The notes under the pieces were generated by a model. The model did not search any database. It was not told where the DNA came from and saw only the letters and a list, made by a program, of their open reading frames with translations. Positions 3,410-20,000 of a DNA stretch of 20,000 bases are shown here, piece by piece; positions within the stretch are counted from its first letter, which is position 1, and the number at the start of each line of letters is the position of its first letter. Origin of the DNA: an uncultured virus (IMG/VR IMGVR_UViG_3300035136_000035) (taxonomy: Duplodnaviria > Heunggongvirae > Uroviricota > Caudoviricetes); IMG/VR virus record IMGVR_UViG_3300035136_000035, one strand, 5' to 3'. Position numbers and translations under genes: made by a program.

Positions 3410-3455
3410 TAACTTGTTTATATAAACAATGAAAAATATTTCACTAATGGAAAAC
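3410..3455 (-). repeat. attI-like site of the left array
   Basis: 45/46 identical to the reverse complement of 18607-18652. Identity ends at the GTTA core. Contains the perfect palindrome TTGTTTATATAAACAA (3414-3429). The repeat is certain; the attI role is inferred. Confidence 0.6.
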
Positions 3456-3504
3456 TCTGAACAGGTAAGGAATAGAATAGTTGAACTCGTAAAAATTTAA
3501 AATT

Positions 3505-3735: not shown

Positions 3736-4394
3736 ATATGATAGAAAATAATTATTTAACAAATATTCCAAAAGATGTTTCAAATTATGGATTATGCAAA
3801 GTATTTGCTGTAAGGAGAGAAATAATACATATAAAACATATTTTAACTGAAATATTCGTTAGAAGAACTATTGATATTGAATATTATTTAATACAATTAG
3901 ATATGTCATTATTTAGTTATATTGAATATATTACAAATAGAATTAGGAAAATACATCATTTTACAAGAAAATACTTTAATGATATTGATAAAATTATAAA
4001 GGATGATAGAGATAAATTTTTCCCTACATTGAATTTATATAAAGGATTAAATAATTGTATTGTTTTAGATTTTGATGATGTTATAACTAAAAATAATTTT
4101 AATGAACTTTATGAACTATGTTGTATAAGATCAATAGTTCATGTATGTTCAGCGAATCCTACTATTGATATTAGCTTTTTTAATAAAAGAGGATTAAGTA
4201 TTCCATATCAAATTCATTCTATGAAAGGTAAAATAAAAAAGATAAAAAGATTATTAGAGATACAAAAAAAATATGATTATGTTTTTTATGTAGATAATGA
4301 GATTGAATATTTAAAATTTGCATGGATATTTGGGATTCAAACATATCATTGGAATAACAAAGAAATAAAATATTTTTCTCTTAAAAGTAGATAA
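3726..4394 (+). CDS. HAD-superfamily-like protein (C-terminal phosphatase-like domain)
   Basis: IVLDFDDVIT (motif I DxD), VCSAN (motif II), VFYVDNEIEYLKFAWIFGIQTYHW (motif IV-like). Confidence 0.55.
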   Translation: MFMNMIENNYLTNIPKDVSNYGLCKVFAVRREIIHIKHILTEIFVRRTIDIEYYLIQLDMSLFSYIEYITNRIRKIHHFTRKYFNDIDKIIKDDRDKFFPTLNLYKGLNNCIVLDFDDVITKNNFNELYELCCIRSIVHVCSANPTIDISFFNKRGLSIPYQIHSMKGKIKKIKRLLEIQKKYDYVFYVDNEIEYLKFAWIFGIQTYHWNNKEIKYFSLKSR

Positions 4395-6857: not shown

Positions 6858-6867
6858 ATTATAAATT

Positions 6868-7221
6868 ATGAAAAACAAATTTCCAAGAGTTAAAATACCT
6901 CAATTAACATGTTTTTACAGGATGGAAATAAGACAAATATATTCTGATTATATTTTATTGCCATTTTGGAAAAGATGGATAGTATCATTATTAAATCAAA
7001 AAGAAAAATATTTATCATACCGTATTGATTTGATATGTCCTAATTTTCAGAATAAATTTAAAAAGAATGATTATTTTATGATGGGCAGGCATCAATTCAA
7101 AACGATAAGTATTGAAGAAAAATTAATCCATATAAGTACTATTGTTAAGGATTTAAGTATTTTTATACTCGATATAACACATATTCATTATTCTCACAGT
7201 TTAAATATATACAAGAAATGA
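6868..7221 (+). CDS. Hypothetical protein
   Basis: ORF track; ATGA overlap with the next gene. Confidence 0.65.
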   Translation: MKNKFPRVKIPQLTCFYRMEIRQIYSDYILLPFWKRWIVSLLNQKEKYLSYRIDLICPNFQNKFKKNDYFMMGRHQFKTISIEEKLIHISTIVKDLSIFILDITHIHYSHSLNIYKK

Positions 7222-7610
7222 GTAAACTAGACATTGAAAATATTGATCCAATTGTAAAAAAAGCATGGGAATTATTAGATGAATTTAATGAAAAGACATT
7301 AATTCCTATGAAAAACAATTTAGAAATTCAATGGAATGAATTACAAAATGGTATGAAAATTGAGAATTATGATATTTCAAAAGCTAGGTATGAAAAGTTT
7401 TATAATATATATCTTAGTTGTAAAGAAGCGTTGGATGATTATATTTCTTTATTAGTATCATTTTATAATATAAAGATTCAAATAGAAAAGAGTAAAATTA
7501 AAGAAAGTGTAGAAAAAGGAAGATTATTACCAAGCCAGATTACAGTTACAAAGTCTATAATAAATCTCATGTATGAATTATTTGATTATTATGAAAGGAA
7601 AAATAAATGA
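7218..7610 (+). CDS. Hypothetical helical protein
   Basis: ORF track; ATGA overlaps on both sides. Confidence 0.7.
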   Translation: MSKLDIENIDPIVKKAWELLDEFNEKTLIPMKNNLEIQWNELQNGMKIENYDISKARYEKFYNIYLSCKEALDDYISLLVSFYNIKIQIEKSKIKESVEKGRLLPSQITVTKSIINLMYELFDYYERKNK

Positions 7611-8791
7611 AAACAGATAATTTAACATTTTATAGGATACCATTACATACTGATGCATGGTATAGATTCAGGACAACAGGCTTAACAAAAGAAGATGCGA
7701 AACAATATAATTGTCCTGTTTTTACAGGAGGTGTCGGATCTTCTGAAATAGCTACAATATTAAGGCATCCACCATCTGAAAAAGCAAGGCCAATTATTCA
7801 AGATTATTATCATTGGAAATTAGGGACTATTATACCAGATAATGAAACAACTGAATTAATGATAGGAGGATTGGAAGATGAAGAAAGGATTAAAAATAGG
7901 TGGAGATGTTATGCTGGCGAAAATGATTTTATTGATAGATATTGGAATTGGTATAATGCACCTCCAAATGAAAAAAGTAAATATATTATCAGGAATGCTA
8001 AACGTATTAATGCTTATATAGTAAATAAAAAATATCCCTGGTTATTTAGTTCATTTGATTTTTGGGCTGAAAAAAATTCTCATTCATTTGACGGAATAAT
8101 TAAACTGGAAGGTTTTCCACTTGAAACAAAAAGTACTTCTTATTTTTATATTAGAAATTTTGAAGATCAATTTCCTGATTCGTTTAACATACAAGTACAT
8201 CAAGAGATGATTATATCTGAATCTGATTATGCAGAAGTAGGATTATTAGTTGATAGGAGGTTCAGGTGTATACCAGTCGAACGAAATGAAAAGCTTTGTA
8301 ATTGGATTCTTGAAAAATCGTATGAATTTTGGCAAACAGTTCTTAAAGGCAGGGAATATCTTGTTGAAAGAAATAAAGCCTTAGAAAAAAATAACATCGA
8401 AGAATTTAATAAATTTCAGGCTTATATAGACAGTTTAGAACCATTACCGGACGACAATCCTGCTTATGAAGATTTGATCAAAGAGAGACACGTTCAAGAT
8501 ATCGAGATGGTAAAAGGAAGTATAGAAGATTACAAGAATGCTAAATTATATGATTCTATTCTTGAATATGAAAAATTACTTGGTTCTAAAAAACAATTTG
8601 CTAAAAATTTATTATTAAAAAAATTAGATGATAATAATGCAGGTCAAATTGATTTTGATAAACTAGGAAAAGTAACACATATAATAGAGGGTAAAAAAAC
8701 AAATCCTACTTTTAGAGTAAGTTTAAAAGAATCAGTAAATAAGAAATCAATAAAAGAAGAATTTGATAAAATTAATTTTAATAAATTATGA
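7607..8791 (+). CDS. YqaJ-like / lambda-exonuclease-family recombination exonuclease
   Basis: TDAWYRFR...GVGSSEIATIL, GLEDE, YPWLFSSFDF, LETKS, IQVHQEM match the PD-(D/E)xK YqaJ pattern. Confidence 0.85.
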   Translation: MKTDNLTFYRIPLHTDAWYRFRTTGLTKEDAKQYNCPVFTGGVGSSEIATILRHPPSEKARPIIQDYYHWKLGTIIPDNETTELMIGGLEDEERIKNRWRCYAGENDFIDRYWNWYNAPPNEKSKYIIRNAKRINAYIVNKKYPWLFSSFDFWAEKNSHSFDGIIKLEGFPLETKSTSYFYIRNFEDQFPDSFNIQVHQEMIISESDYAEVGLLVDRRFRCIPVERNEKLCNWILEKSYEFWQTVLKGREYLVERNKALEKNNIEEFNKFQAYIDSLEPLPDDNPAYEDLIKERHVQDIEMVKGSIEDYKNAKLYDSILEYEKLLGSKKQFAKNLLLKKLDDNNAGQIDFDKLGKVTHIIEGKKTNPTFRVSLKESVNKKSIKEEFDKINFNKL

Positions 8792-9180
8792 AAACAACAT
8801 TAACACAACAAGAATTAAGTAATATAATAAGATTTTTTAGTATGTTTTATGTTACAAATCCAATATTAATTAATGAAAATATTAATATTGATGGATTAGA
8901 AACAAATGGATTTAAATTTATAAAAAATAAACAAATTAAAGGAATTGTTGCTTTTAGTAAAGAATATATTTTAAATGGTTTAGATATATTAATAAAAGAT
9001 TATTTTGAAATAATAGATAAATATTTTGAATTAAACAAATATATCAAATCAAAAAATCAACAAACATTATTTGATGTAACGGATTCTTTTGAAAAAATAA
9101 ATAATATTAAATATTATTCAATTGAAAATAATAATGAAGATATATCATTTGATAATATTATAACAATTGAAATTAAATGA
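8788..9180 (+). CDS. Hypothetical protein
   Basis: ORF track; ATGA overlaps. Confidence 0.65.
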   Translation: MKTTLTQQELSNIIRFFSMFYVTNPILINENINIDGLETNGFKFIKNKQIKGIVAFSKEYILNGLDILIKDYFEIIDKYFELNKYIKSKNQQTLFDVTDSFEKINNIKYYSIENNNEDISFDNIITIEIK

Positions 9181-9425
9181 AAACAAAAGAATTTAAAAAA
9201 TATGAAATAATAGAAGAAATAATATATAATGATGAATATAATGAAAAAGATATAACTATAAAAGTAGAAAAAGGTGAATATCGTCTATTTGATTTTATAG
9301 TATTAAATAATGGACTTTCTACTGCTATTAAATCTATAAATTATAATAAAGAATATAATGATGTTACAATTTATAATCCATTTTGTTGCAATTTTATAAA
9401 TTTTAGTTGTTTTATTGTAATGTAA
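9177..9425 (+). CDS. Hypothetical protein
   Basis: ORF track; ATGA overlap. Confidence 0.6.
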   Translation: MKTKEFKKYEIIEEIIYNDEYNEKDITIKVEKGEYRLFDFIVLNNGLSTAIKSINYNKEYNDVTIYNPFCCNFINFSCFIVM

Positions 9426-9440
9426 TTTTTTTTATAAAAT

Positions 9441-9677
9441 ATGAAAAAAAGAGAAGTTAAATATAGATCAATGAATAATCCTGATATTGAAAAAGAAGGA
9501 TATTTTGAATATTGGGGGCAACAGGACCAGGTTTTATTAAACGAAAAAAGAGAACCATTTGGGATACAAAGAAATTTAGTAGGAGTAGTAATAGATAAAG
9601 AAACTGGAGAATCTATAATTACTTTAGTTCAAAATATAAAATTTATTGATTATGCTAAGAAAAGAACTCATAGATGA
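9441..9677 (+). CDS. Hypothetical protein
   Basis: ORF track; co-oriented within the operon. Confidence 0.65.
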   Translation: MKKREVKYRSMNNPDIEKEGYFEYWGQQDQVLLNEKREPFGIQRNLVGVVIDKETGESIITLVQNIKFIDYAKKRTHR

Positions 9678-9939
9678 ATACAGGAAAGAAAATGGGTTTG
9701 AAATATTAAGAGAATCTGATTATCCTTCATATATTAAATATGGAAAAGAAACAAAGATGTTTCGATATTTAATAGTCATTTGGTTATATAACGAGATGAT
9801 TCTAGTGAGTTGTACTTCTAAGATTAAAATAAAAGATAATGAATTTGTGAATACAAAAGCTATAAAGAAAAAACCTTCATATGAAGAAATAGAATTATGT
9901 TTTACATTTCCATTTAAAGCAAAATCATTTTTAATATAA
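9646..9939 (+). CDS. Hypothetical protein
   Basis: ORF track; co-oriented within the operon. Confidence 0.6.
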   Translation: MIMLRKELIDEYRKENGFEILRESDYPSYIKYGKETKMFRYLIVIWLYNEMILVSCTSKIKIKDNEFVNTKAIKKKPSYEEIELCFTFPFKAKSFLI

Positions 9940-9943
9940 AATT

Positions 9944-10105
9944 ATGGATGAAAAATTAAATGAAATATTAGATATTCTTCATGGATATCCTAAAGAAGAA
10001 GCAATTGATATATTAAAAAAAGCTATAAAATATGTTAATGAATATCATTATAGTGCTTTTTTAGTAGAAAATGGAGAAACAAAACCAATATTTAATATTA
10101 AATAA
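9944..10105 (+). CDS. Small hypothetical protein (53 aa, MDEKLNEILDILHGYP...)
   Basis: Hand-translated; fills the gap between neighbouring ORFs; aaaattATG start. Confidence 0.65.
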   Translation: MDEKLNEILDILHGYPKEEAIDILKKAIKYVNEYHYSAFLVENGETKPIFNIK

Positions 10106-10118
10106 ATTTTAAAAAGTT

Positions 10119-10568
10119 ATGTATAAAGAAAAAATAATCTTAACAATTTTAGGAGACCCAAAAGCACAAAAAAGACATCGACATTTTTCTAAAAAATTTA
10201 ATAATGGAAAAGAATTTTCTGGTACTTATGATCCAAGTGCTAAAGAAAAAAAAGATTTTTTATTAACTGTTTTAAATAACAAACCGGAAAAACCATTTGA
10301 ATGTCCTATTTGTATAAAATTTTATTTTCATTTTTCCAGACCAAAAAATCATTATGGAACAGGAAAAAATTCTAATAAATTAAAATCAAATGCACCTTCT
10401 CTTTGTTCAAAAAAACCAGATTATGATAATTTATTAAAATTCGTAACAGATGCTTTAAATAAAATATATTTTAAAGATGATGCACAAGTATGTACTGGTA
10501 GTTTTTATAAATATTATAGTGAGAATCCAAGAACTGAAATAATAATAATTCCTTTATATGAAAGATAA
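10119..10568 (+). CDS. rusA: RusA-family Holliday junction resolvase
   Basis: GDPKAQKRHR N-terminus and KKPDYDNLLKFVTDALNKIYFKDDAQV catalytic motif. Confidence 0.92.
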   Translation: MYKEKIILTILGDPKAQKRHRHFSKKFNNGKEFSGTYDPSAKEKKDFLLTVLNNKPEKPFECPICIKFYFHFSRPKNHYGTGKNSNKLKSNAPSLCSKKPDYDNLLKFVTDALNKIYFKDDAQVCTGSFYKYYSENPRTEIIIIPLYER

Positions 10569-10848
10569 ACATGAATTAAATGAAGAAACTGCTTTATGGA
10601 ATGCATTTCGAGAAGAAGGAAGAAAAAGAACTATAAAAAAACAAAATGATGCTAAAGAATTATGTGAGTTATTATGTGGAGATTTAGGGATAGATTTTAA
10701 ATTAATACATCTTTGGCATTTCAGATTATCTCAAAATGGATTTCAGATTGATATATTTCCAACCAGACAACGGTATCATATAATTAACTCAAATCAAAGA
10801 GGAAGATATAAAGATTTACAAGGATTTATTTACTCTAAATTTAAATAG
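10558..10848 (+). CDS. Hypothetical protein
   Basis: ORF track; overlaps the rusA stop. Confidence 0.7.
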   Translation: MKDKHELNEETALWNAFREEGRKRTIKKQNDAKELCELLCGDLGIDFKLIHLWHFRLSQNGFQIDIFPTRQRYHIINSNQRGRYKDLQGFIYSKFK

Positions 10849-10849
10849 G

Positions 10850-11173
10850 ATGAAAAAAACAATTTTATTATCAGTATTACTTTTTACAAGTATTTTTATT
10901 TATGCTCAATATCCTGTAATACATATAGGAATAGTTGATAGCATTCGTCAAGTAAAACTTGACAGTATATGTCAAATAAGGGGACATGTAATAACTAGTT
11001 ATTGTACAAGTATGGAAGCAAATTGTCCTCCATATTATTTAGATTATCCAGACAGTACGGTAATGGTAATTCCTAATTGTAACAAGACAGAATGTATATG
11101 TCAGAGATGCGGGAGAAGTATATTACTACCTGCTAAAGAAAAACGATATACTATTTGGAGAAAAGAAGAATAA
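10850..11173 (+). CDS. Putative exported cysteine-rich protein
   Basis: MKKTILLSVLLFTSIFIYAQ looks like a Bacteroidetes signal peptide ending A|Q; 7 Cys including CICQRCG. Confidence 0.6.
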   Translation: MKKTILLSVLLFTSIFIYAQYPVIHIGIVDSIRQVKLDSICQIRGHVITSYCTSMEANCPPYYLDYPDSTVMVIPNCNKTECICQRCGRSILLPAKEKRYTIWRKEE

Positions 11174-11191
11174 TTTAATTTTAAAAAAATC

Positions 11192-11365
11192 ATGGAAATT
11201 ATACTATGGATTTTATTTGGATATTTAGTACAAGCTGTTATTTGTGCTATAATTAATATTTTAGTAGCTACAAGAATACCTAGAAGTGGTATTGATTTTT
11301 TAAGGTTAACATTTTTGCCTTGGTTATTATTGCACTTAGATGAAGTTAAACTAAAAAAATTATAA
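11192..11365 (+). CDS. Small membrane protein (57 aa, MEIILWILFGYLVQAVICAIINILVA...)
   Basis: Hand-translated; fills the gap; hydrophobic. Confidence 0.6.
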   Translation: MEIILWILFGYLVQAVICAIINILVATRIPRSGIDFLRLTFLPWLLLHLDEVKLKKL

Positions 11366-11366
11366 T

Positions 11367-11672
11367 ATGAACAAAGAAACTAAAAAATTAGAACAAGAAC
11401 CTGCATTTCCTTGTTTAGAATATAATGAACCTGGATATGGTGATGCTATAATTATTACTATAAATGGTGAAAAAAATATAATTCCATTTAAAGAAGGAAT
11501 GTCAAAAAGATTTTATGCAGCTTGTAAGGCTATGCAAGGAATATTATCAAATTCTGAAGCGTATAAAGTTATAACAGAAGATGCTGATAATCAAAATAAA
11601 TGTTGGGGCGAAATGATAATAAAACAATCGTATCAATTTGCAGATGAACTTTTAAAACAGGAAAACGAATAA
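11367..11672 (+). CDS. Conserved phage hypothetical protein
   Basis: PAFP...GMSKRFYAACKAMQGIL...SYQFADELL matches a widespread phage motif (PAFP..GMxLRDYFAAKAMQG..AYxxADAML). Confidence 0.75.
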   Translation: MNKETKKLEQEPAFPCLEYNEPGYGDAIIITINGEKNIIPFKEGMSKRFYAACKAMQGILSNSEAYKVITEDADNQNKCWGEMIIKQSYQFADELLKQENE

Positions 11673-11674
11673 TA

Positions 11675-11875
11675 ATGGAAAAGATATCTAAAAATTTATA
11701 TAAAGGAGAACTTATAACAAATCCAATGGATATTAAAAGACTTGTAGAAGAAAAACGAAGCGTATACATTGAACCTCATTTAGGAGTATGTCCTGCTGCT
11801 GTAATATTACATTGGCAGTTTGCTATAATTTATAGAATGATTTTAAATAATCAATTATATTATACTTATAAATGA
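11675..11875 (+). CDS. Hypothetical protein
   Basis: ORF track; ATGA overlap with the next gene. Confidence 0.65.
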   Translation: MEKISKNLYKGELITNPMDIKRLVEEKRSVYIEPHLGVCPAAVILHWQFAIIYRMILNNQLYYTYK

Positions 11876-12174
11876 ATGATATTAAAGAAATAATATATCA
11901 TCAAACGCCTAAATTATATGAGCGATATAAAAGACGAATTGTATTTGTATATAACAATATGGATTTATTATTAAAATTAGATAAACTTAGAAAAGAAAAA
12001 AAATGGGCGGCTTTTACTTTAAAAAATCCTTTAATAAAAAAAATCGCAAATAAAGCTAGACAATATATTGGTTATTCAAATAAAACATATGATGCTGATA
12101 TATGTTGGACATTATATATGATGGCTTTAGATTTACATAGAGAAAATATTAAATATCAACTTATAAACAATTAA
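11872..12174 (+). CDS. Hypothetical protein
   Basis: ORF track. Confidence 0.65.
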   Translation: MNDIKEIIYHQTPKLYERYKRRIVFVYNNMDLLLKLDKLRKEKKWAAFTLKNPLIKKIANKARQYIGYSNKTYDADICWTLYMMALDLHRENIKYQLINN

Positions 12175-12178
12175 AACA

Positions 12179-12529
12179 ATGGAAATAAAAACAGAATATT
12201 TTTCTTTAAATAAATTTGATATAATAACTATACCAAAATCTTCTGTTTTTATAGTAATTAAAAAATCAGATGAATTTAATCTTACAATAATTCCTTATAA
12301 AAATTTTAGATTTAAATGGATGTATTATATATATTGGTTTTTTATAAATATAAAAGAAATAATCAATAATTATATTACATGTATTAAATGTATTTTCAAT
12401 GATATTAGATATAAATTATTCAGAAAAAAAATTCAGAATAAGTTTAAATCTATACTAATAGATATTGAAAAATCATTTAAACAATATATTTTAAACGAAG
12501 TATTTAAAAATAATAACAAATTAAATTAA
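12179..12529 (+). CDS. Hypothetical protein
   Basis: ORF track. Confidence 0.6.
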   Translation: MEIKTEYFSLNKFDIITIPKSSVFIVIKKSDEFNLTIIPYKNFRFKWMYYIYWFFINIKEIINNYITCIKCIFNDIRYKLFRKKIQNKFKSILIDIEKSFKQYILNEVFKNNNKLN

Positions 12530-12535
12530 TAAATT

Positions 12536-13789
12536 ATGGAAAATACAACATCATTAGTAAAAAAAACAAGTAATGCACCTGCATTTTTAGAAGATTCATT
12601 TCAAACACTTGAAAAAGCATTAAATTATGCTAATTTATTATTAGAAAGTAAACTTGTTCCTGATCATTTTTATGAAAAAGGAAATGATAATAAACCTGAT
12701 TATACAAAAGGAAAACCAGGTGCATTATTAATGGTAATGCAACATGGTATGGAATTAGGATTTACTCCAACACAATCATTACAACAAGTAGTTCCTATAA
12801 ACGGATTATTAACAGTAAAAGGAGATGGATGTAAAAGTAAAATACTTCATTCTGGATTTTGCGAATTATGGAAAGAAGAAGAAACAGGTTCTATTGAAAA
12901 AGAAGATTATTCTATAAAAATAACTTCAAAAAGAAAAGATACAGGAGAACAAATAAGCCGTATATTTAGTGTTGATTTGGCTAAAAGGGCTGGATTATGG
13001 ATAACTAAAGAAAGATTATCAGGGCAAAATGGTTATAAATGGAAATTAAGTGCATGGTATAAATTTCCTGATCGTATGATTAGATATCGGGCATTAGGAT
13101 TTATAGCTAGAGATTTATATCCAGATGTATTACAAGGATCCTATATGTTTGAAGAAGTAAGAGATAATCCTGATGAAATGTCAACTACTATAACCACTTC
13201 TGATGGAAATATAATTCAATTACCTGAATCTAAAACAGAACATTTAAAACAAATATCAGATAATAAAAGTTCTTCAATTGTAGAAGATTTGGAAAAGAAA
13301 GATGAATTAATAAATTCTCAAAAAGAAAATCAGAATAAAAAAGAAATCAAAGAAGATAAACCTAAAAGAAGGGGAAGGCCAAAAAAAGACGAATCAATAG
13401 AAAATAAAGCCGTAGACGAAAAAAAACAAGAAGTGGATACAATTACTAATGAAGAAAAAAAAGATGAACCAGTGCAGTCTGAATTATCCACAGACAATAA
13501 ATTATTAGGTAAATATGGTAATCAAGGGGAAGTCTTTGTTAAAAATCGTATAGAAGTTATTAAAGAAAAATTAGCAAACATATTACCTTTACAGGAAAAT
13601 GGAGAAAGGGGATTTAGTGAAGTAAATGATTTATATTTTACCTTAACAGAAGATTTAGGAATTTCAGAAGAAAAATTTTCAAATATAAAAGTTGAGGTTC
13701 TTGAATTTGATCAATTCACTACATTAGAAGATATATGTTTTAAAGGAACAGAAGAACAGATATTGAAATTAATTGAAAAAGCTAAATAA
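12536..13789 (+). CDS. RecT-like single-strand annealing protein with a long charged C-terminal extension
   Basis: GMELGFTPTQSLQQVVPING, FSVDLAKRAGLW, AWYKFPDRMIRYRALGFIARDLYPDVLQG..EE; same operon as the YqaJ exonuclease. Confidence 0.8.
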   Translation: MENTTSLVKKTSNAPAFLEDSFQTLEKALNYANLLLESKLVPDHFYEKGNDNKPDYTKGKPGALLMVMQHGMELGFTPTQSLQQVVPINGLLTVKGDGCKSKILHSGFCELWKEEETGSIEKEDYSIKITSKRKDTGEQISRIFSVDLAKRAGLWITKERLSGQNGYKWKLSAWYKFPDRMIRYRALGFIARDLYPDVLQGSYMFEEVRDNPDEMSTTITTSDGNIIQLPESKTEHLKQISDNKSSSIVEDLEKKDELINSQKENQNKKEIKEDKPKRRGRPKKDESIENKAVDEKKQEVDTITNEEKKDEPVQSELSTDNKLLGKYGNQGEVFVKNRIEVIKEKLANILPLQENGERGFSEVNDLYFTLTEDLGISEEKFSNIKVEVLEFDQFTTLEDICFKGTEEQILKLIEKAK

Positions 13790-13947
13790 TGATATTCAGT
13801 AAAAGACTTAAATTAGAAAAAGAATATTTTGAATGGATAAAAGGAACGCAAATAAAAGATTGTCCATTTAATGTAATATCATTTTTAGATATAAAAGGAT
13901 ATTTAATAAATAAACCAAAACATGAAAACGATATTCATACATGGTAA
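13789..13947 (+). CDS. Small hypothetical protein (52 aa, MIFSKRLKLEKEYFEW...)
   Basis: Hand-translated; TAATG overlap with the RecT-like stop. Confidence 0.55.
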   Translation: MIFSKRLKLEKEYFEWIKGTQIKDCPFNVISFLDIKGYLINKPKHENDIHTW

Positions 13948-14197
13948 AACAAAATCAGGGCGCCGGTTTACAATAGCCGGTGTTCCTGATAAAGATAAAT
14001 TAAAGATAGGATTAGCAATATGCAATCCAAAAGACCAGTTTTGTAAAAAGATAGGAAGAAGTATTTCAGAAGGAAGGGCTAAAAATAAAACTTATTATTT
14101 TGAACTTTCTAATGATTTTAAAGAAAATATTCAAATAGTTAGATATTTTTCAGAAGTAATAATAAGAGAATGGAATTATCCATATAAAAAACGATAA
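13922..14197 (+). CDS. Conserved phage hypothetical protein
   Basis: GLAICNPKDQFCKKIGRSISEGRA matches a common phage GxAxCxPxDxFxKxxGRxIA motif. Confidence 0.7.
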   Translation: MKTIFIHGKTKSGRRFTIAGVPDKDKLKIGLAICNPKDQFCKKIGRSISEGRAKNKTYYFELSNDFKENIQIVRYFSEVIIREWNYPYKKR

Positions 14198-14198
14198 T

Positions 14199-14393
14199 AT
14201 GAAAAAAGTAATGCAAATAATGAAAACGGAAGCGCACGGGTACAACAAATATTTAACAGACAAATATTTGAATAATCTTACTATTGAAGAATTAAGATGT
14301 TTCGTACATCCACTTTCAAAGGAATACTACGACAAGATAATCAAAGAAATTGAACGACAAAAATCTAAACAAAATGAAACCAAGAAAATTTAA
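14199..14393 (+). CDS. Hypothetical protein
   Basis: ORF track. Confidence 0.6.
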   Translation: MKKVMQIMKTEAHGYNKYLTDKYLNNLTIEELRCFVHPLSKEYYDKIIKEIERQKSKQNETKKI

Positions 14394-14862
14394 ACTTATT
14401 AAAAAGTATCCGAAAGCAATTGAATTAAATATTGATCTTATTGTTGAATGGGATGAAAAAAAACTTTTTTATATTGCATTAATAAATAATAGTATTTGTT
14501 TTTTCCCTAAAGAAGAAATAGAAAACTATCATGGATTTTGGCAGGAAATAAAAGAAGAACCTGTTTTAATTACGGAAGATGGGGAAAAATTGTTTGAAGG
14601 TGATGAATATTGGTTTATAGATGAAGAATTTATAGCTTATCCAAATATAGTAGAAGATGGATGCGGAAAACGAAAAGATTACAAATATTTTTCAACCAAA
14701 GAATCAGCCAAAAAGTGGATAGAAGAAAACAAGCCTAAATGGAGTGATAAGGATATGATTGAATTTGCCGAAAAATGGGAATATGATAAACATCTATTAT
14801 GTTATGATATTAAAAAAGCATTAAAAACAAAAGAATATGCTAAAAAAGAAAAAACAGATTAA
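14374..14862 (+). CDS. Phage hypothetical protein (ATG 14374 preferred over TTG 14350)
   Basis: ORF track; MKPRKFKLIKKYP...LITEDGEKLFEGD. Confidence 0.65.
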   Translation: MKPRKFKLIKKYPKAIELNIDLIVEWDEKKLFYIALINNSICFFPKEEIENYHGFWQEIKEEPVLITEDGEKLFEGDEYWFIDEEFIAYPNIVEDGCGKRKDYKYFSTKESAKKWIEENKPKWSDKDMIEFAEKWEYDKHLLCYDIKKALKTKEYAKKEKTD

Positions 14863-15217
14863 ACAAGACGGTAAAGTATTATCTCAAAAAAAAGCGTTTT
14901 ATGAAGCATTTATATATTGGAAAGGAAACAATTTTCTTACTGGTAAAAAAACATTATTAGAATATTTAACTAATTCTAATTTTGCTCATGTTTTACCCAA
15001 AGGACAATTCAGATATTTTAAATATTACCCTAAAAATATAGTAATATTAACATTAGATCAACATACTTTATTTGATAATTTTACAGGTGAAAAATTTAAA
15101 ATCAGAGAAAAAGAACATCCAGAAGAAAATTGGGATAAATTATTTAACTTAGTAATTGAATTACAACAAGAATATGCTGTTTGGATTAAAGAAAATTCTC
15201 ATACCTATAAATTATAA
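14837..15217 (+). CDS. HNH-like nuclease-fold protein
   Basis: FAHVLPKG...KNIVILTLDQHTLFD gives H-N-H spacing; the zinc-binding cysteines are absent. Confidence 0.5.
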   Translation: MLKKKKQIKQDGKVLSQKKAFYEAFIYWKGNNFLTGKKTLLEYLTNSNFAHVLPKGQFRYFKYYPKNIVILTLDQHTLFDNFTGEKFKIREKEHPEENWDKLFNLVIELQQEYAVWIKENSHTYKL

Positions 15218-15391
15218 ATGGAAAGATTATTTCAAATAAATATAGGATATGCTTGTTTTGGTATAATAAGCGAAAATGATAAAATAATTCAAACAGCCCC
15301 AATAGGAAGATGGATGATAGGAAAAAGTCTTCAAGAAATAAAGCCTTATCTCAAAAGCAAAAAAGCTAAAGTAATTGAAATAAAAAGATGA
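15218..15391 (+). CDS. Small hypothetical protein (57 aa, MERLFQINIGYACFGII...APIGRWMIGK...)
   Basis: Hand-translated; abuts the upstream stop and has an ATGA overlap downstream. Confidence 0.7.
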   Translation: MERLFQINIGYACFGIISENDKIIQTAPIGRWMIGKSLQEIKPYLKSKKAKVIEIKR

Positions 15392-15813
15392 CATTAAATT
15401 TTACAACAAAAGATAAATTATTACAACGAGCTAATTCTTTGGAATTTTTTAAAAAAGATTTAACCCAATTATATACTCCAGAAGAATATTCAGAAATAAA
15501 AGGAGGAGGTTTAGTTAATTGGATAAATGCAAATGAAAAATATTATTTAGAAAAAGCTATTATAGATAAAATAAAAATAATACACGAAGTAATAAATAAA
15601 CATGGAAATGATTCAATAAATAAATATAAAGAAATTACTGAATATCCAGATAAAAGTCATCCTGCATATTATGCATTTCAAATATTAAAAAATTTTGGAA
15701 TAGATTGGGTAGATGAATTGTTTATTCCAATGTCAAAAAAAGAATTTAATATTTATCTTGAAATATATAATGAAGTTTTTTCAAAGTATTTAAATAAAAA
15801 AGCCCGGCATTAA
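15388..15813 (+). CDS. Hypothetical protein
   Basis: ORF track; last gene of the rightward operon. Confidence 0.7.
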   Translation: MTLNFTTKDKLLQRANSLEFFKKDLTQLYTPEEYSEIKGGGLVNWINANEKYYLEKAIIDKIKIIHEVINKHGNDSINKYKEITEYPDKSHPAYYAFQILKNFGIDWVDELFIPMSKKEFNIYLEIYNEVFSKYLNKKARH

Positions 15814-15828
15814 CCGGGCTTAATTTTT
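15796..15828. terminator. Bidirectional rho-independent terminator
   Basis: Stem AAGCCCGG (15800-15807) / CCGGGCTT (15814-15821) with an A run on the left and a T-rich run on the right, between convergent stop codons. Confidence 0.85.
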
Positions 15829-16273
15829 AACTAAATTCTAATCCAACTTTATTTTTAATAGCTTCTGTTGCTCCTTCTATAAATTGTTTTGTTTTTTTAT
15901 AAAATTCAGTTTCTTTTTCATCTTCATTTAACAGTTTTTTAAGTTCAGGAACAATTTTTTTAATATTCATTAAACTTAAATTTCCATCACAATCTGAATG
16001 ATTTAGTAATTTATGTAAAGGATTAGGTTTAAATGATCTCCATTTTAATGGTAGTATTTTTTGAAATTCTCTAATAAGAATCATTTCAACCTCATCTCCT
16101 TTTGGATATAAACTATTAAGTAAAGAGAACATATTATGTGTTTCATTAGAATAAAAACCTTCCATTAAATCTAATGGTATTCCTATTCTTTTTGCCAATT
16201 CTTTTCTATATCTATGAAATGATGAATAAGCTCCTTCAAAAGCATCATAACTAATATATAATCCCATAATCAA
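15827..16273 (-). CDS. Hypothetical protein
   Basis: ORF track; contains LLNHSDCDG; ends at the terminator. Confidence 0.75.
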   Translation of the reverse strand: MIMGLYISYDAFEGAYSSFHRYRKELAKRIGIPLDLMEGFYSNETHNMFSLLNSLYPKGDEVEMILIREFQKILPLKWRSFKPNPLHKLLNHSDCDGNLSLMNIKKIVPELKKLLNEDEKETEFYKKTKQFIEGATEAIKNKVGLEFS

Positions 16274-16551
16274 AATATTTTACGAATATTCTTGGAAAAT
16301 TTAAATACTAATTCACGATGTTCAGGAATAGTTACATTTTGCCTGGTAGAAATATTCCTGGCAAGTTTTTCTTTCCTTACAACAACTGTGAATTTACCAA
16401 AATTCCTGATTTCAATACTTCTGCCTTCTTTTAATATTTTAGGCACAATAGTAAAAAATCTTTCTAATACTTTTTGTGTTTCTTCTTTTTTTACACCAGT
16501 AATGTTACTGATGACGTCTGTTAATTCTTGTTTTGTTACGTTTTTTTTCAT
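16270..16551 (-). CDS. HU/IHF-family histone-like DNA-binding protein
   Basis: TKQELTDVIS...GRSIEIRNFGKF...RKEKLARNIST...IPEHRELVFKFS. Confidence 0.92.
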   Translation of the reverse strand: MKKNVTKQELTDVISNITGVKKEETQKVLERFFTIVPKILKEGRSIEIRNFGKFTVVVRKEKLARNISTRQNVTIPEHRELVFKFSKNIRKIF

Positions 16552-16571
16552 TGGTTAAATGGTTTAAAAAT

Positions 16572-16874
16572 TTAATCTACAACATTTCTAATTACATCTT
16601 CAAAAGGATCGTATTCTATTTGTTGGATTACTTCATAAGTTTCTCCTTTCTTCAATTCAATATCTGCATGCTCTTTTGTCCATCGCTCTATCCCTTCTTC
16701 TATAAAAGGCTTTTCAAGTAAATGCTTAATAGCGCAATTCTCTCCTGCTTTAATTATTACTTTTTCTTCTTCACGGATGATTTCACATTCTCCTGTTATG
16801 ATGTGTGAATGTCCGCTGACTTCACCACGTGCAATTACACGATTTCCTCTGTTTTGTTTTGTTTCTTTTTTCAT
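16572..16874 (-). CDS. Small His-motif partner protein of the DUF6745-like gene
   Basis: ARGEVSGHSHII...IKH...EHADIEL..GETYEVIQQIEYDP...VVD is the pattern I recall next to DUF6745 genes. Confidence 0.65.
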   Translation of the reverse strand: MKKETKQNRGNRVIARGEVSGHSHIITGECEIIREEEKVIIKAGENCAIKHLLEKPFIEEGIERWTKEHADIELKKGETYEVIQQIEYDPFEDVIRNVVD

Positions 16875-16887
16875 TTTAATTTAATTT

Positions 16888-18105
16888 TTATGTTTCACAA
16901 ATTGGTTGATTGAATTCTTGTTTTAAATTTAAAAGGCCAATATCTCCATGTCTTAATTGTATTTTTTTATTCTCAAACCCCCATGCCTTAGCTTCCCATA
17001 CATTTTTACATTCTGGTACTCCAAGAAAATATTGCCGTTCGGTTGAAGGACAAATAACATCCAAAAAATAGTAATTTTTTCCTGTTAATTCATCTTTTTC
17101 TTTTGATTTCCATAATTTAATAGAATAACCATATTGATCTTTATCTTCATCTATTATTTCAATACCTAATAATTCAGCATATTTTTTAACTCCAAGTATT
17201 TCTTTTAAACACCTTCTTTTTTCTGCATTTTTTTCATTTATAATAGTCTGTTTTGTTATTTTATTTTTATGAAATATCCAGTCTTTGTCAATTATTAATC
17301 CTTTCCAAGCACATACTGAATATCCATCTTCAAATTCAACAGCATAATTATTTTCACAATGTAATTGTTTTGATTCATTTATATTCACTTTAGTTGGCAT
17401 TTGAATTACAATACATAATCCATCCATTTGAATCATATCATATATATTAGAATTAATTAATTTTTTCCATTCAGTCCATAATTCTAAATTATAAGAAGGT
17501 ATTAATTCATTATTTATAAAATCATAAAAACAAGTCCATCCATAATCCCATATATTACCATAATAAGAAAATTTCTCCAGTTCAAATTTCCCCAGATTAT
17601 CCCTCATATTATCCCTCAGATTATTCCCCAGATTATCCTCAAGATTATTCCCCAGATTATTCCACAGATTATTCCCCAGATTATCCCTCAGATTAACCCC
17701 CAGATTATCCACCAGATTATCCACCAGATTATCCCTCATATTATCCCTCAGATTATTCCCCAGATTATTCCACAGATTATTCCCCAGATTATTCCACAGA
17801 TTATTCCCCAGATTATTCCACAGATTATTCCCCAGATTATTCCACAGATTATTCCCCAGATTATTCCACAGATTATTCCCCAGATTAGAAATATTTTTTA
17901 ATATATTTATAATAAGTTGAGACTGAAAAGGACTTTGGCAATACCAGATAAAAGGCTCTTTATATCCGCTGTTTTTATAAATATATTTAATGCTTGATTC
18001 TGCTGTTTTTTTATTTATTTTATAACCTTTGTAAACTTTATCATAATACTTTTTTAAGTATACAGGAATAAGTTTTTCTTGTTGTGGTGTTAATTTATCA
18101 ATCAT
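16888..18105 (-). CDS. DUF6745-like protein with an internal tetrapeptide repeat
   Basis: MIDKLTPQQ N-terminus; LHCENNYAVEFEDGY..AWKG, EKNAEKRR, VICPSTERQYFLGVP, EAKAWGF...P..ET C-terminal domain. Confidence 0.75.
   Translation of the reverse strand: MIDKLTPQQEKLIPVYLKKYYDKVYKGYKINKKTAESSIKYIYKNSGYKEPFIWYCQSPFQSQLIINILKNISNLGNNLWNNLGNNLWNNLGNNLWNNLGNNLWNNLGNNLWNNLGNNLRDNMRDNLVDNLVDNLGVNLRDNLGNNLWNNLGNNLEDNLGNNLRDNMRDNLGKFELEKFSYYGNIWDYGWTCFYDFINNELIPSYNLELWTEWKKLINSNIYDMIQMDGLCIVIQMPTKVNINESKQLHCENNYAVEFEDGYSVCAWKGLIIDKDWIFHKNKITKQTIINEKNAEKRRCLKEILGVKKYAELLGIEIIDEDKDQYGYSIKLWKSKEKDELTGKNYYFLDVICPSTERQYFLGVPECKNVWEAKAWGFENKKIQLRHGDIGLLNLKQEFNQPICET
17588..17887 (-). repeat. Coding tandem repeat, ~25 x 12 bp (NLGN/NLWN/NLRD/NLVD)
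   Basis: Units such as AATCTGGGGAAT and AATCTGTGGAAT on the minus strand, including about five consecutive perfect 24-bp dimers. Confidence 0.95.
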
Positions 18106-18109
18106 AGTT

Positions 18110-18394
18110 TTATTTAAATTTTAAGTTTTGTAACTTTTTTACTTTTCTAAGTAATTTATTTATTTCTTGTATTCTCATTTGTTCAGCTTTTTCTGTTGCT
18201 TCTTTTTTAGTTAAATGCCAATCTGTTTTTTTAAAGTATAATACAGGTATCCAAGAAAAATTTCCATCAGAAAATGGATTTTTTTTCATTATACATAAGC
18301 TATTAGGTTTATTTATTTCAAATGAAAAATTATTATCTTCGTTATATTCTATTATTCCTTTGCTTAAAGCATGTTTTGTTATGTACACTTTCAT
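18110..18394 (-). CDS. Phage hypothetical protein
   Basis: ORF track; MKVYITKHALSKGI...WHLTKKEATEKAEQMR. Confidence 0.75.
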   Translation of the reverse strand: MKVYITKHALSKGIIEYNEDNNFSFEINKPNSLCIMKKNPFSDGNFSWIPVLYFKKTDWHLTKKEATEKAEQMRIQEINKLLRKVKKLQNLKFK

Positions 18395-18397
18395 GAT

Positions 18398-18514
18398 TTA
18401 GCGTTTTATTTCATCACAAATAATGTCTTTTCTTGCTTTCTTTGAAATAAGCAAATACATACAGAATAAAATACCTAGTATTATTATCCATAGAGATTTT
18501 AATAGTTTTTTCAT
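18398..18514 (-). CDS. Small membrane peptide (38 aa, MKKLLKSLWIIILGILFCMYLLISKK...)
   Basis: Hand-translated; fills the gap; one hydrophobic helix. Confidence 0.5.
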   Translation of the reverse strand: MKKLLKSLWIIILGILFCMYLLISKKARKDIICDEIKR

Positions 18515-18516
18515 AT

Positions 18517-18633
18517 TTAAAAGTTTAAAGTTTTAATTATTAATATTCCTATAATTACTAATATAAGAAGTAGTGTTACAATTACTACATTTCTGCATCC
18601 TTCATTGTTTTCCATTAGTGAAAAATTTTTCAT
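18517..18633 (-). CDS. Small membrane peptide (38 aa, MKNFSLMENNEGCRNVVIVTLLLILVIIGILIIKTLNF) starting within the attI-like repeat
   Basis: Hand-translated; stop lies 2 nt before the next ATG. Confidence 0.45.
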   Translation of the reverse strand: MKNFSLMENNEGCRNVVIVTLLLILVIIGILIIKTLNF

Positions 18634-18652
18634 TGTTTATATAAACAAGTTA
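18607..18652 (+). repeat. attI-like site of the right array
   Basis: GTTTTCCATTAGTGAAAAATTTTTCATTGTTTATATAAACAAGTTA; inverted copy of 3410-3455 (45/46). Confidence 0.6.
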
Positions 18653-19012
18653 ACTGCAATTGGGTTTCAACCACATTTGTACAGGATGTCCATCCGGTCT
18701 AATTATCCAATGTTTGTTATCAAATAGCGTTTCACCTTCTATACCGTGACTGTCAATTGTAATATAAATACCATCTTCTGTTGGGCGTTCATCATTCGAA
18801 ACAACCCAACAGCCGTTAACATCACGTATAGGTAATGCCGCTGTTTCTTCGTTCGAACGTTCTGCCCGTTCACTTGCTCTTAACAAACTATTTCTTATCT
18901 CATTCAATTCCTTTAAATCTTGGCTTATAAATGGTTGTTCCCCGGGGTTTATTGCCATTACTCCGTTCATTATTCTTTCTAAAAAGTCTAGTGTTTTAAT
19001 AAAAAAATCCAT
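18650..19012 (-). CDS. Cassette-borne protein; N-terminal half encoded in the C5 loop, C-terminal half DUF551-like
   Basis: Reads through the C5 arm as TAALPIRDVNGC, then WVVSNDERPTEDGIY...HW...VQMW. The stop TAA is the core of the attI-like site. Confidence 0.65.
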   Translation of the reverse strand: MDFFIKTLDFLERIMNGVMAINPGEQPFISQDLKELNEIRNSLLRASERAERSNEETAALPIRDVNGCWVVSNDERPTEDGIYITIDSHGIEGETLFDNKHWIIRPDGHPVQMWLKPNCS

Positions 19013-19097
19013 CGCTCGTATTATTTAGTTTTATAACTCGTATTTAACTGTGTGCCAAATTGGATGGCGGCACGTACCCATACGTACACCGTTAGCA
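18814..19097 (+). repeat. attC-like site C5 (long, ~230-nt loop)
   Basis: TAAC-ATC-ACGTATAGGTAATGCCG (18817-18840) ... CGGCACGTACCCATACGT-ACACC-GTTA (19068-19094); complementary arms with a bulge. Confidence 0.75.
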
Positions 19098-19108
19098 ACA
19101 AGGCTACA

Positions 19109-19360
19109 TTACCGTTCTTTAAAACTACTTGCTATAAAAGTTGATTTTTCATCTTTGTAAACAAAAGATTGTTCAGACAATACTTTCATTACGTACCCGC
19201 TTGTATATTCTAATACGGTGTCTGTTTCAGAATCATAGTCTGCAACAATCTTATCACTCCATTCAAAAATTACTTTTACAGGTAAGTTTACAATTCTTAA
19301 ATCACCATCACCTACTGGAGTTTCTTTTATTTCAGGCATTTCCCATTTAAATTCTTCCAT
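19109..19360 (-). CDS. Cassette-borne acidic hypothetical protein
   Basis: Lies between GTTAGCAAC (19091-19099) and GTTGCTAAC (19386-19394). Confidence 0.7.
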   Translation of the reverse strand: MEEFKWEMPEIKETPVGDGDLRIVNLPVKVIFEWSDKIVADYDSETDTVLEYTSGYVMKVLSEQSFVYKDEKSTFIASSFKER

Positions 19361-19387
19361 TTTATTTCTCGTTTAAAACCGCCCAGT

Positions 19388-19478
19388 TGCTAACATAGTG
19401 TAGCCACAATAGGCGGAAAGTTATTACTAAATTTGAGCAGTCTACAAAGCGGCCTACTCTTACCGCTGTCCGTTAGCA
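19388..19478 (+). repeat. attC-like site C6 (chimeric)
   Basis: TGCTAAC (19388-19394)...GTTAGCA (19472-19478). 19422-19471 is an exact 50-bp inverted copy of 2488-2537; the other arm (ATAGTGTAGCCACAATAGGCGG) is different. Confidence 0.75.
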
Positions 19479-19484
19479 ATAATA

Positions 19485-19811
19485 CTACATCCGTTCTTCT
19501 TTAATGTTTGGAATAGGTATATTATCGCTAATTAATTCAAATAATTTTAAAAGCATTTTCCTTCTTGCTGCTAATATTTGTGATTTTACATCTTCCAATG
19601 TTCTACTGTCAGTAATTATAGACTCGCTCTCCTTGTAAACAATTCCATTATATATTATTAGCATATAGTAACGACACTTTGAGTAACCATGAGAGTTTGT
19701 TCTCCAATCAATCCATTGTTCAAATCTATCAAAACTTACCGTACTGTTGCTAACACACGGTAAAACTCCATTGCCTTCTTGTTTTTCGATATTTTGTTCT
19801 TCGTTTTTCAT
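19485..19811 (-). CDS. Cassette-borne hypothetical protein starting inside C7
   Basis: ATG at 19811 is in the C7 loop; reads through the arm as EGNGVLPCVSNS. Confidence 0.7.
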   Translation of the reverse strand: MKNEEQNIEKQEGNGVLPCVSNSTVSFDRFEQWIDWRTNSHGYSKCRYYMLIIYNGIVYKESESIITDSRTLEDVKSQILAARRKMLLKLFELISDNIPIPNIKEERM

Positions 19812-19881
19812 TTTATTATATTTTGATAATTTACCTCTCGTATTTATTACGGCAACGAGAGTTTACCGTCAAACGTTATTC
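19748..19881 (+). repeat. attC-like site C7
   Basis: TAAC-AC-ACGGTAAAACTCCATTGCC (19751-19775) ... GGCAACGAGAGTTTACCGT-CAAAC-GTTA (19851-19878). Confidence 0.8.
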
Positions 19882-19998
19882 ATCACCCCCTAAACTTTCG
19901 TTAAGTGAATCAAATTTATATGCAAATGTTAAGGAATCCAATTTCATTTGTCGAATTTCGAGTAATACATGAAACGAATCAAATTGAAATTTGGATTG
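19876..19998 (-). CDS. Partial cassette-borne ORF (...QSKFQFDSFHVLLEIRQMKLDSLTFAYKFDSLNESLGGDE)
   Basis: Hand-translated open frame from the window edge; its stop TAA is part of the C7 core. Confidence 0.55.
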   Translation of the reverse strand, partial: QSKFQFDSFHVLLEIRQMKLDSLTFAYKFDSLNESLGGDE

Positions 19999-20000
19999 TT

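Follow-up and report, generated by a model that had tools for sequence, protein, structure and literature searches.

Integrons are thought to depend on a domain specific to their integrase, IntI, which reads the extrahelical bases of folded attC sites, and in the classical cassette the attC site follows its open reading frame (ORF). A cluster of attC sites without an integron integrase is reportedly what Cury and co-workers in 2016 termed a CALIN. The present analysis concerns positions 18601–20000 (minus strand) of a stretch of 20 000 nucleotides (nt) from an uncultured virus of the Caudoviricetes (IMG/VR record IMGVR_UViG_3300035136_000035), the whole of which is referred to below as the window. 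This region is probably the inner end of a mobile gene-cassette array that belongs to a phage-borne, integron-like system.

Qi et al. (2023; PMC9892861) described clusters of attC-like sites without IntI, with DNA methyltransferases as cargo, in phages of both virulent and temperate lifestyle. As far as the available text of that paper goes, two of the sites lie in phage P12002L and the sites are treated as integron components usable by the bacterial integrase IntI1; its main text, in the part available, mentions no linked Xer-like recombinase ('Xer' occurs 0 times). For chromosomes of Bacteroidales, the available text of Ross et al. (2019; 10.1101/471110) describes the rAID-1 gene clusters, in which a recombinase of the XerD family lies 5′ of co-directional genes and the cargo consists of immunity genes against the type VI secretion system. 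These clusters are defined there by a recombinase more than 44% identical to that of B. fragilis, followed by at least two co-directional low-GC genes.

The minus-strand cassette array

Three complete cassettes and the end of a fourth were found on the minus strand between 18601 and 20000, with sites of 138, 95 and 288 nt. Sites were scored with R1, a covariance model trained on 23 sites, three of which came from the window; in a scan of the window the best unrelated match reached only 16 bits. The features of the array, with lengths in base pairs (bp) and amino acids (aa), are as follows.

19876–20000, minus strand: unit 0, the 3′ part of a further cassette ORF truncated at the edge of the window; its stop codon is the TAA of the TAAC box at 19883–19875
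19746–19883, minus strand: site a, an attC-like hairpin of 138 nt, with TAAC box, 5-nt spacer, imperfect 19-bp stem, 75-nt loop, 2-nt spacer and GTTA box
19485–19811, minus strand: cassette ORF M1, 108 aa, starting within the loop of site a; no match in Pfam or PHROG
19386–19480, minus strand: site b, 'I1' family, 95 nt; R1 score 31 bits, E 5.6e-5, not a training sequence
19109–19360, minus strand: cassette ORF M2, 83 aa; no family match
18812–19099, minus strand: site c, 288 nt, with 12-bp stem and 240-nt loop; R1 score 31.5 bits, E 4.4e-5, not a training sequence
18650–19012, minus strand: cassette ORF M3, 120 aa, starting within the loop of site c; its stop codon is the TAA of the TAAC box at 18657–18649
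18601–18652, minus strand: inner boundary repeat I2, with TAAC, a perfect palindrome of 16 nt (TTGTTTATATAAACAA) and the start of a mini-ORF; a candidate attI-like site

On the ORF-sense strand the sites were found to have the geometry TAAC-G, spacer of 4–5 nt, stem, loop, stem, 1–2 nt and T-GTTA. They also have the imperfect inverted repeats and the AAC…GTT boxes of attC sites, the box at the start of a cassette being complementary to the box at its end. With three sites in 18812–19883 and no recombinase in 20 kilobases (kb), the region has the composition of a CALIN, the sites having been called with the analysis' own model, R1. Site a is among the R1 training sequences and its R1 score is therefore by construction. 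Its 75-nt loop contains the ATG of M1. The loop of site c codes for residues 1 to ~63 of M3, and the GTTA box of this site forms codons 65–67; an alternative delimitation of site c as a site of 55–70 nt ending in GTTAAAT or GTTATAA was dropped after the R1 match and the stem analysis of the 288-nt site. In site b, the 5′ arm and loop are 97% identical to 2485–2543 in inverted orientation. M1, M2 and M3 belong to no Pfam or PHROG family, and the cassette proteins of the window gave no tblastn match in any of the loci fetched for comparison.

Across the ORF of a cassette, the 9-nt GTTA box that precedes it is the reverse complement of the TAAC box that follows it. A preliminary description of this DNA had placed a second, oppositely oriented cassette array with this end rule at the head of the leftward operon. 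The present analysis supports this: the array has the integron end rule, heads the leftward gene string and is oriented opposite to an array at ~2200–3461. The three box pairs that it gave are all present: GTTAACGGC (18820–18812) with GCAGTTAAC (18657–18649) at 8/9, GTTAGCAAC (19394–19386) with GTTGCTAAC (19099–19091) at 9/9, and GTTAGCAAC (19754–19746) with ATTGCTAAC (19480–19472), which match at 8/9 as 9-mers and at 12/14 in the form first written. The two stop codons said to be the TAA of a TAAC box were likewise found (18652–18650 and 19878–19876). Its count of at least four units holds only if the cut unit, present as a 3′ end, is included with the three complete ones.

Exact 9/9 pairs of the type GTTAnnnnn/nnnnnTAAC at a distance of 120–700 nt occur four times in the window, all within 2784–3413 or 19091–19754. 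Simulation gave an expectation of ~0.75 such pairs, and four were reached in 3 of 300 simulations. The hexamer GTTAAC is itself a palindrome. Judged on the window by itself, the end rule reaches only moderate significance.

Site family, polarity and recombinase in other phages

Arrays of the same site family were found in at least 30 IMG/VR contigs and in cultured Polaribacter phages, where they lie immediately upstream of a Xer-like recombinase gene. The 59-nt core of I1 recurs at 85–100% identity in three IMG/VR contigs and in one contig of a metagenome-assembled genome (MAG), with unrelated flanks and, in two of these four contigs, within tandem arrays; two of the three viral contigs encode a tyrosine recombinase of 270 aa on the same strand, downstream of the array. 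With this recombinase as the query, 47 IMG/VR loci were fetched. A site scanner detected 138 sites on the recombinase strand and 2 on the other strand upstream of the gene, compared with 7 and 0, respectively, downstream. R1 gave 120 matches (E ≤ 0.001) in 43 loci, none of which had been used in training; all 120 lie on the recombinase strand and 117 are upstream. With default filters R1 found none in the low-GC loci L027, L054 and L066, where the scanner had found 6, 3 and 2 sites upstream of the recombinase, and it gave no match in the loci of the phages Freya and Leef.

The 158 distinct sites cluster in length at 95–100 and 130–135 nt; a G follows AAC in 144 of them and a T precedes GTT in 144. 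Consecutive sites obey the end rule, with all five variable positions matching in 77 of 139 pairs, compared with 56 among 5000 pairs drawn at random and with 1 of 158 comparisons of the two boxes within one site. This chaining is the signature of integron cassettes. The preliminary description had asked how the end complementarity compares with chance pairing, and it exceeds chance overwhelmingly in the family and moderately among the exact pairs of the window. The cultured Polaribacter phages encode a 35%-identical integrase with small genes upstream, and Leef_1 contains three sites with 9/9 chaining. At the recombinase end of the array, 17 of 23 loci have a conserved TA-rich stretch after the last TAAC box, 37–103 nt before the recombinase match; in these 17 loci the last TAAC box matches its own GTTA box at 9/9 in 16 and at 8/9 in L045.

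The recombinase of the relatives is Xer-like and has 265–270 aa. Its closest solved relative is the archaeal XerA of P. abyssi (4a8e; E 1.7e-37), followed by IntI4 (2a3v), to which it aligns in two stretches that leave ~48 IntI4 residues unmatched. It falls below the cut-off of every NCBIfam model, the best being that of XerA, and it scores 152–162 bits against the integron integrase model TIGR02249, for which the cut-off is 265. Judged by the defining insertion in the alignment, the enzyme is not an IntI. The preliminary description had proposed to look beyond the window for a tyrosine recombinase with an IntI-specific insertion; the relatives have a short Xer-like enzyme that lacks the insertion, and no tyrosine recombinase is encoded in the window. 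The family is large (7544 of 8000 scored candidates at E ≤ 1e-30), and its members among those listed mostly have 263–270 aa.

The assignment of hairpins to ORFs was derived from similar sites in different surroundings. Of 68 pairs of sites with bodies at least 80% identical, 17 agree in the whole GTTA box and none in the whole TAAC box. For bodies at least 85% identical and with sufficient flanks (57 pairs, from which three self-overlaps were dropped), the downstream flank is homologous in 4 pairs and the upstream flank in 0; one duplicate within an array has a 100% identical body and a downstream flank identical at 200/200 positions, with unrelated sequence upstream. The hairpin belongs to the downstream ORF and the polarity is therefore the reverse of that of a classical integron. 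The classical arrangement, with ORFs co-oriented with the attC top strand and the promoter Pc at the attI end, was not found; the ORFs read towards the junction. As a check of orientation, the bottom strand of P12002L_attC1 as listed by Qi et al. carries the flanking methyltransferase genes in sense orientation.

With symmetric scoring, the stems contain 319 G·T pairs on the ORF-sense strand compared with 33 A·C pairs, and because of this excess the ORF-sense strand folds better; the G lies on the 5′ arm in 284 of the G·T pairs and on the other arm in 35. The crossover would be located at the 5′ AAC of the ORF-sense strand, which is the geometry of the integron 'bottom strand', here the coding strand. 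Of 110 cassette ORFs, 27 start within the upstream site; in 17 the stop codon is the TAA of the TAAC box.

Units that distinguish one natural variant from another are cut at the AAC of the TAAC box. Freya_1, Freya_5 and Freya_10 are 99.9–100% identical apart from their cassette blocks. Freya_1 and Freya_10 show no difference across 7179 nt on one flank and are 99.9% identical across 2921 nt on the other; what distinguishes them is a block of 12 small genes (4.9 kb), which starts with a hairpin body right after an AAC box and ends with an AAC box joined to the pre-integrase sequence. Freya_5 provides a third such junction, and in Freya_8 a deletion lies inside a repeated site of 69 nt. Integrons are not mentioned in the available text of the paper on these Freya phages (PMC8776804).

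The window region itself is present as contigs in four wetland-metagenome runs (X1–X4). A joint from 19470/19473 to 19874/19876 occurs in contigs of X1 and X2 (depth 16–19) and of X3, a strain that differs in many places (side 125). What the joint leaves out is precisely hairpin a together with ORF M1 and the TAAC box of this ORF, with an ambiguity of 5 nt in X1 and X2 and of 1 nt in X3. Other contig joints place further I1 copies beside I2 (2569→3411) and, in X3, a different end before I2. Uncovered parts of the window (e.g. 1–2000 in X1/X2 and 2669–3335 in X3) were counted only where a contig bridges them, and joints of low depth (e.g. 332→18597) were disregarded. The variation among relatives that the preliminary description had suggested looking for does exist: unit −1 is bridged at box junctions in the contigs from public runs and the cassette blocks of the Freya phages differ.

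The cassettes of relatives carry largely unannotated genes, with a Pfam match in 12 of 108 ORFs and none in the other 96. The annotated cargo comprises three DNA methyltransferases (MT-A70, D12 and N6_N4), the Thoeris inhibitor Tad6, two ADP-ribosyltransferase-like proteins, a phosphatase, a radical SAM protein, an ExoX-like_C protein and two DUFs. For M3 of the window, 12 homologues (P0001–P0012) gave a mosaic alignment in which one is full length. Four have only residues 1 to ~63, encoded by the loop of site c, in common with M3 and possess four different C-termini; seven have only the C-terminal part in common and possess seven different N-termini. The two modules, which are distributed independently, meet at the GTTA box of site c. 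The alignment shows the predicted M3 read-through ORF to be real and conserved. Because the M3 family is mosaic at this point, exchange also occurs at or near the GTTA end of a site; homologous recombination between repeated stems and occasional use of the other strand are possible causes.

Three side observations concern the sites and the recombinase of relatives. An A/T-rich motif of the type ACTTTCAAATTA is common to the loops of otherwise different sites; to our knowledge, variable attC loops are not expected to be conserved, and the motif may provide a context for the start of translation or be bound by an architectural protein, for example the HU of the phage. In L009, a 10.8-kb MAG contig labelled Gammaproteobacteria, the stretch examined contains at least ten sites of the phage family at 31% GC; it is probably a phage contig binned by mistake, and the two Xer-like genes of this MAG are located elsewhere. 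In L017, which otherwise has 35% GC, a short GC-rich stretch with an odd ORF of 64 aa (1019–1260) lies between the last array-side gene and the recombinase.

Mirror array, inner repeat and backbone

A mirror-image array was found on the plus strand at ~2200–3461, with ORFs P1–P4, sites A1 and A2 and the broken site A3. Two inverted repeats tie the arrays together: the 59-nt site core (2485–2543 compared with 19416–19474, 97% identical) and the 52-nt repeat I2 (3410–3461 compared with 18601–18652, 94% identical). Both arrays read inwards and each ends on I2. The features of the mirror array are as follows.

2240–2476, plus strand: cassette ORF P1, 78 aa
2477–2574, plus strand: site A1, I1 family, with an 18-bp stem containing two G·T pairs and a degenerate TAAC box; fold z-score −3.47
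2585–2740, plus strand: cassette ORF P2, 51 aa; weak match to a zinc ribbon, under the Pfam cut-off
2736–2792, plus strand: site A2, 57 nt, with a perfect 10-bp stem and an 11-nt loop (TCGTTTTAATG)
2833–3036, plus strand: cassette ORF P3, 67 aa; boxes GTTACCGTG (2784–2792) and CACGGTAAC (3029–3037) pair at 9/9
3120–3401, plus strand: ORF P4, 93 aa; boxes GTTAGCAAA (3254–3262) and TTTGCTAAC (3405–3413) pair at 9/9
3410–3461, plus strand: inner boundary repeat I2 of the mirror array

The loop TCGTTTTAATG of site A2 is also present in P12002L_attC1 of Qi et al. The preliminary description had seen in the mirror symmetry a built-in feature of the genome rather than a one-off capture, and the I2 repeat and the site family common to both arrays would fit that suggestion.

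Around I2 the window contains no recombinase remnant and no integrase. The I2 pattern gave no match in IMG/VR, and four metagenome matches to it were rejected as unrelated AT-rich contigs with only a 24-mer in common. Directly after I2 (18395–18600, minus strand) lie two mini-ORFs of 38 aa each with hydrophobic cores, the first of which starts within I2; after the other copy of I2 the counterpart of this first mini-ORF, read by eye, is an ORF of 23 aa. A seemingly 'empty' unit was observed in contig L001 at ~4290 (minus strand), where the GTTAGCAAA box, the 11-nt loop TCGTTTTAATG and the TTTGCTAAC box follow in succession with no ORF; the two boxes are the same as those flanking 3254–3413 in the window. 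As to the outer part of the mirror array, positions 2491–20000 are covered at 17–21x in X1 and X2 with almost nothing of 1–2000, and X3 holds 1–2000. Because of this difference in cover, the strains seem to differ in what precedes A1, with a break at the start of the hairpin body (contig cover only, no bridging contig seen).

The window is a phage replication and recombination module, with the following genes.

Plus strand: intein-bearing DnaB helicase, RecE-like exonuclease, RusA and RecT, assigned with Pfam and PHROG
15827–19811, minus strand: HU-like protein, DUF6745 protein and small ORFs

The DnaB-like helicase (820 aa; 4395–6857, plus strand) contains, between its N- and C-terminal helicase domains, an intein with Hint and LAGLIDADG homing-endonuclease domains. 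In the DUF6745 gene (16888–18105, minus strand) a 12-nt unit is repeated 22 times in tandem at 17542–17935 and encodes a peptide repeat of the type NLGNNLWN. The GC content of the window is ~26% overall and varies from 16 to 36% across sections of 500 nt; it is 32–36% in the arrays, compared with ~16–33% (mostly 22–30%) in 500-nt sections of the backbone between them. No tRNA and no meaningful Rfam match were found in the window, and blastn of 18395–20000 gave zero matches in cultured phages. At the protein level the sole backbone relative found was contig L010, with 39% identity to the DUF6745 protein, and it contains neither sites of the family nor a recombinase. The only hint at a host is that one M3 homologue comes from an Aureibaculum (Flavobacteriaceae) MAG.

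Interpretation and comparison with known systems

The reading of 18601–20000 as the inner end of a mobile cassette array is carried by the anatomy of the units, the end rule, the arrays beside a recombinase in many phages, the linkage of each hairpin to the downstream ORF and the natural variants. A unit on the ORF-sense strand consists of a hairpin site, one small ORF and a 9-nt box ending in TAAC, and the hairpin site of a G, a spacer of 4–5 nt, a stem of 11–21 bp, a loop, the other arm, 1–2 nt and a 9-nt GTTA box; in long sites the ORF starts inside the loop. According to the proposed mechanism, the Xer-like recombinase would catalyse the exchange. Its substrate would be the ORF-sense strand, single and folded, which corresponds to the 'bottom strand' of integrons, and the cut would fall in or right after AAC. 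I2 (TAAC plus palindrome) may be the attI-like entry site of both arrays. The enzyme for the window phage would be encoded outside the 20-kb window or supplied in trans, and the cargo may serve early accessory or counter-defence functions.

A wider proposal can be put forward only tentatively. The system could be the phages' own analogue of the integron, with a minimal Xer-type enzyme that would require no IntI-specific domain and with sites that double as coding modules. Long loops with start codons and N-terminal parts (≤~63 aa) would be fused in frame by recombination to varying cassette-encoded C-termini, so that protein domains and not only genes would be shuffled, chiefly in the service of counter-defence; in the window phage, the two arrays with inverted entry that bracket the replication module could swap cassettes or invert the module.

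A number of observations weigh against the mobile-array reading. No tyrosine recombinase was found in the 20-kb window by Pfam, and tblastn with seven family members gave only E > 0.8; a recombinase gene directly downstream of the last cassette is thus not present within the window. Among phages with sites, G002 (92% complete) has no such recombinase gene on its sequence record and P12002L has apparently none among the matches listed. The linkage of arrays to the recombinase is physical only and no proof of catalysis, and the enzyme could be an ordinary phage integrase. Three of the seven window sites are damaged: the 3′ arm of site b has been replaced and its stem is therefore degenerate (stem score 3), A3, between P3 and P4, has no stem, and the TAAC box of A1 is degenerate. 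Fold z-scores of single sites are weak (−0.8 to −1.6, with −0.83 for site a), except for that of A1, and the gap in folding energy between the strands is only 0.2–2.1 kcal/mol at single window sites.

Box pairs matching at 8/9 or better number 20 compared with 17.9 expected (counts doubled over strands), and because there is no excess at this level an 8/9 pair alone does not stand above chance; the pair at 18812 and 18649 is rescued because R1 finds a full site outside the training set at 18812–19099 (minus strand) with a 12-bp stem of the family type. Only 17 of the 68 pairs with similar bodies retain the same GTTA box, and the mosaic of M3 at or near the GTTA box is not predicted by a model with a single crossover. 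The likeness of I2 to the conserved TA-rich junction is modest (7.5 bits against the attI-like consensus, rank 1 of 158 TAAC-preceded positions); other AT-rich places in the window outscore it against the attI-like weight matrix, which is not specific in AT-rich DNA. The Logan contigs give the presence of variants and not their frequencies.

Alternatively, the array could be a fossil, built by the same system and now inactive, with no enzyme, decaying sites and reshuffling only by general homologous recombination of the RecE/RecT type between repeated sites. The lack of a recombinase in 20 kb, the damage in three of seven sites, the chimeric nature of site b, which is joined inside its loop, and the RecE-like, RecT and RusA proteins encoded by the phage agree with this, and the Freya_8 deletion within a 69-nt repeat could be homologous. 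The joint in X1–X3, however, lies at a TAAC|G junction and not in a long repeat, with an ambiguity of 5 nt (X1, X2) or 1 nt (X3); the stems of sites a, c, A1 and A2 are retained, and most of the genome lies outside the 20-kb window. A fossil array is on this evidence unlikely.

An ordinary CALIN is less probable still: a piece of a bacterial integron array would have been picked up by the phage as a substrate for the IntI of the host, and the Xer-like gene of the relatives would just be a lysogeny integrase. CALINs have been published for 17 phages including a Polaribacter phage (PMC9892861, available text), site lengths of 57–138 nt and AAC/GTT boxes fit attC, and some site-bearing phages, like the window, have no recombinase. 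The sites are, however, tightly and directionally tied to the phage recombinase, both by the scanner (138 against 9) and by R1 (120 of 120 matches on its strand), and Freya isolates gain or lose cassette blocks exactly at the junction beside the recombinase gene. The ORFs are moreover uniformly antisense to the attC orientation and no IntI was found anywhere in the sequences examined; according to the available text of PMC9892861, P12002L_attC1, the single member of this family among the six tested sites, was the only one without a verified IntI1 junction.

That the hairpins are RNA or regulatory elements between small genes (terminators, mRNA stabilizers or translation signals) with an incidental end complementarity is very improbable, since the tolerance of G·T pairs on the sense strand, as in RNA, and the start codons and common A/T-rich motif in the loops are opposed by an end rule that joins boxes across the ORF and not within the hairpin (77/139 against 1/158), by isolates that differ by whole units at the boxes, by the strongly one-sided G·T pairs (G on the 5′ arm in 284 against 35) and by 0 terminator-like sites on the sense strand and fewer promoter-like sites than chance (4 against 8.4 expected), the terminator/promoter reading having been rejected. 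The hairpins may have a role in expression as a second function.

If the mobile-array reading is true, a widespread phage system that does the job of an integron by means of a simple Xer-like enzyme, its genes lying on the strand that folds, would change the picture in which integrons depend on a domain specific to IntI. It would bear on the origin of integrons from Xer recombinases, and phages would possess their own platform for rapid gene swapping. The annotated cargo points to a phage equivalent of the bacterial integrons that store anti-phage defences, and the 96 unannotated cassettes would then be a source of new counter-defence genes. The cultured Polaribacter phages Freya and Leef make the idea directly testable. 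In the literature searched, with most subscription journals outside its scope, no paper was found on recombinase-linked phage cassette arrays with this polarity; phage CALINs and rAID-1 are already published.

The phage system has in common with classical integrons, above all sedentary chromosomal ones, the arrays of mostly single-gene, promoter-poor cassettes, the hairpin sites of 57–138 nt with AAC…GTT boxes and the cassette-specific box complement across each ORF. The crossover would likewise fall at one AAC, one strand folds better, the gene of the tyrosine recombinase and the sites are divergent in orientation, a conserved junction lies next to this gene, and site families are homogeneous within a lineage. 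It differs in its enzyme of 265–270 aa, which lacks ~48 residues at the extra segment of IntI4, and in its ORFs, which are located on the strand that folds (the 'bottom' strand) and point towards the recombinase, so that a Pc at attI cannot drive them. Its sites have no bulged bases and instead show asymmetric spacers of 4–5 and 1–2 nt and fixed G·T positions, a quarter of its ORFs (27/110) begin within the upstream site, and it is carried by a phage.

Among the phage CALINs of Qi et al. (2023), P12002L_attC1 has the 11-nt loop and the geometry of window site A2; here, in contrast, long arrays are tied to a phage enzyme, and P12002L_attC1 is, in the available text, the one IntI1 failure of that study. 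With Xer/dif systems and archaeal XerA the similarity lies in the enzyme, P. abyssi XerA being the best solved relative and the XerA model the best NCBIfam match, below its cut-off; Xer acts on a double-stranded dif site of 28 nt, whereas the present sites are long hairpins in arrays with cassette-specific boxes. The rAID-1 clusters, as far as the available text describes them, share the Bacteroidota lineage, a recombinase of the XerD family, small low-GC genes, repetitive intergenic sequences 'reminiscent of integrons' and defence-related cargo. They are set apart by layout and cargo, the recombinase of the present system lying 3′ of the genes, its carrier being a phage and its cargo including methyltransferases and a Thoeris inhibitor.

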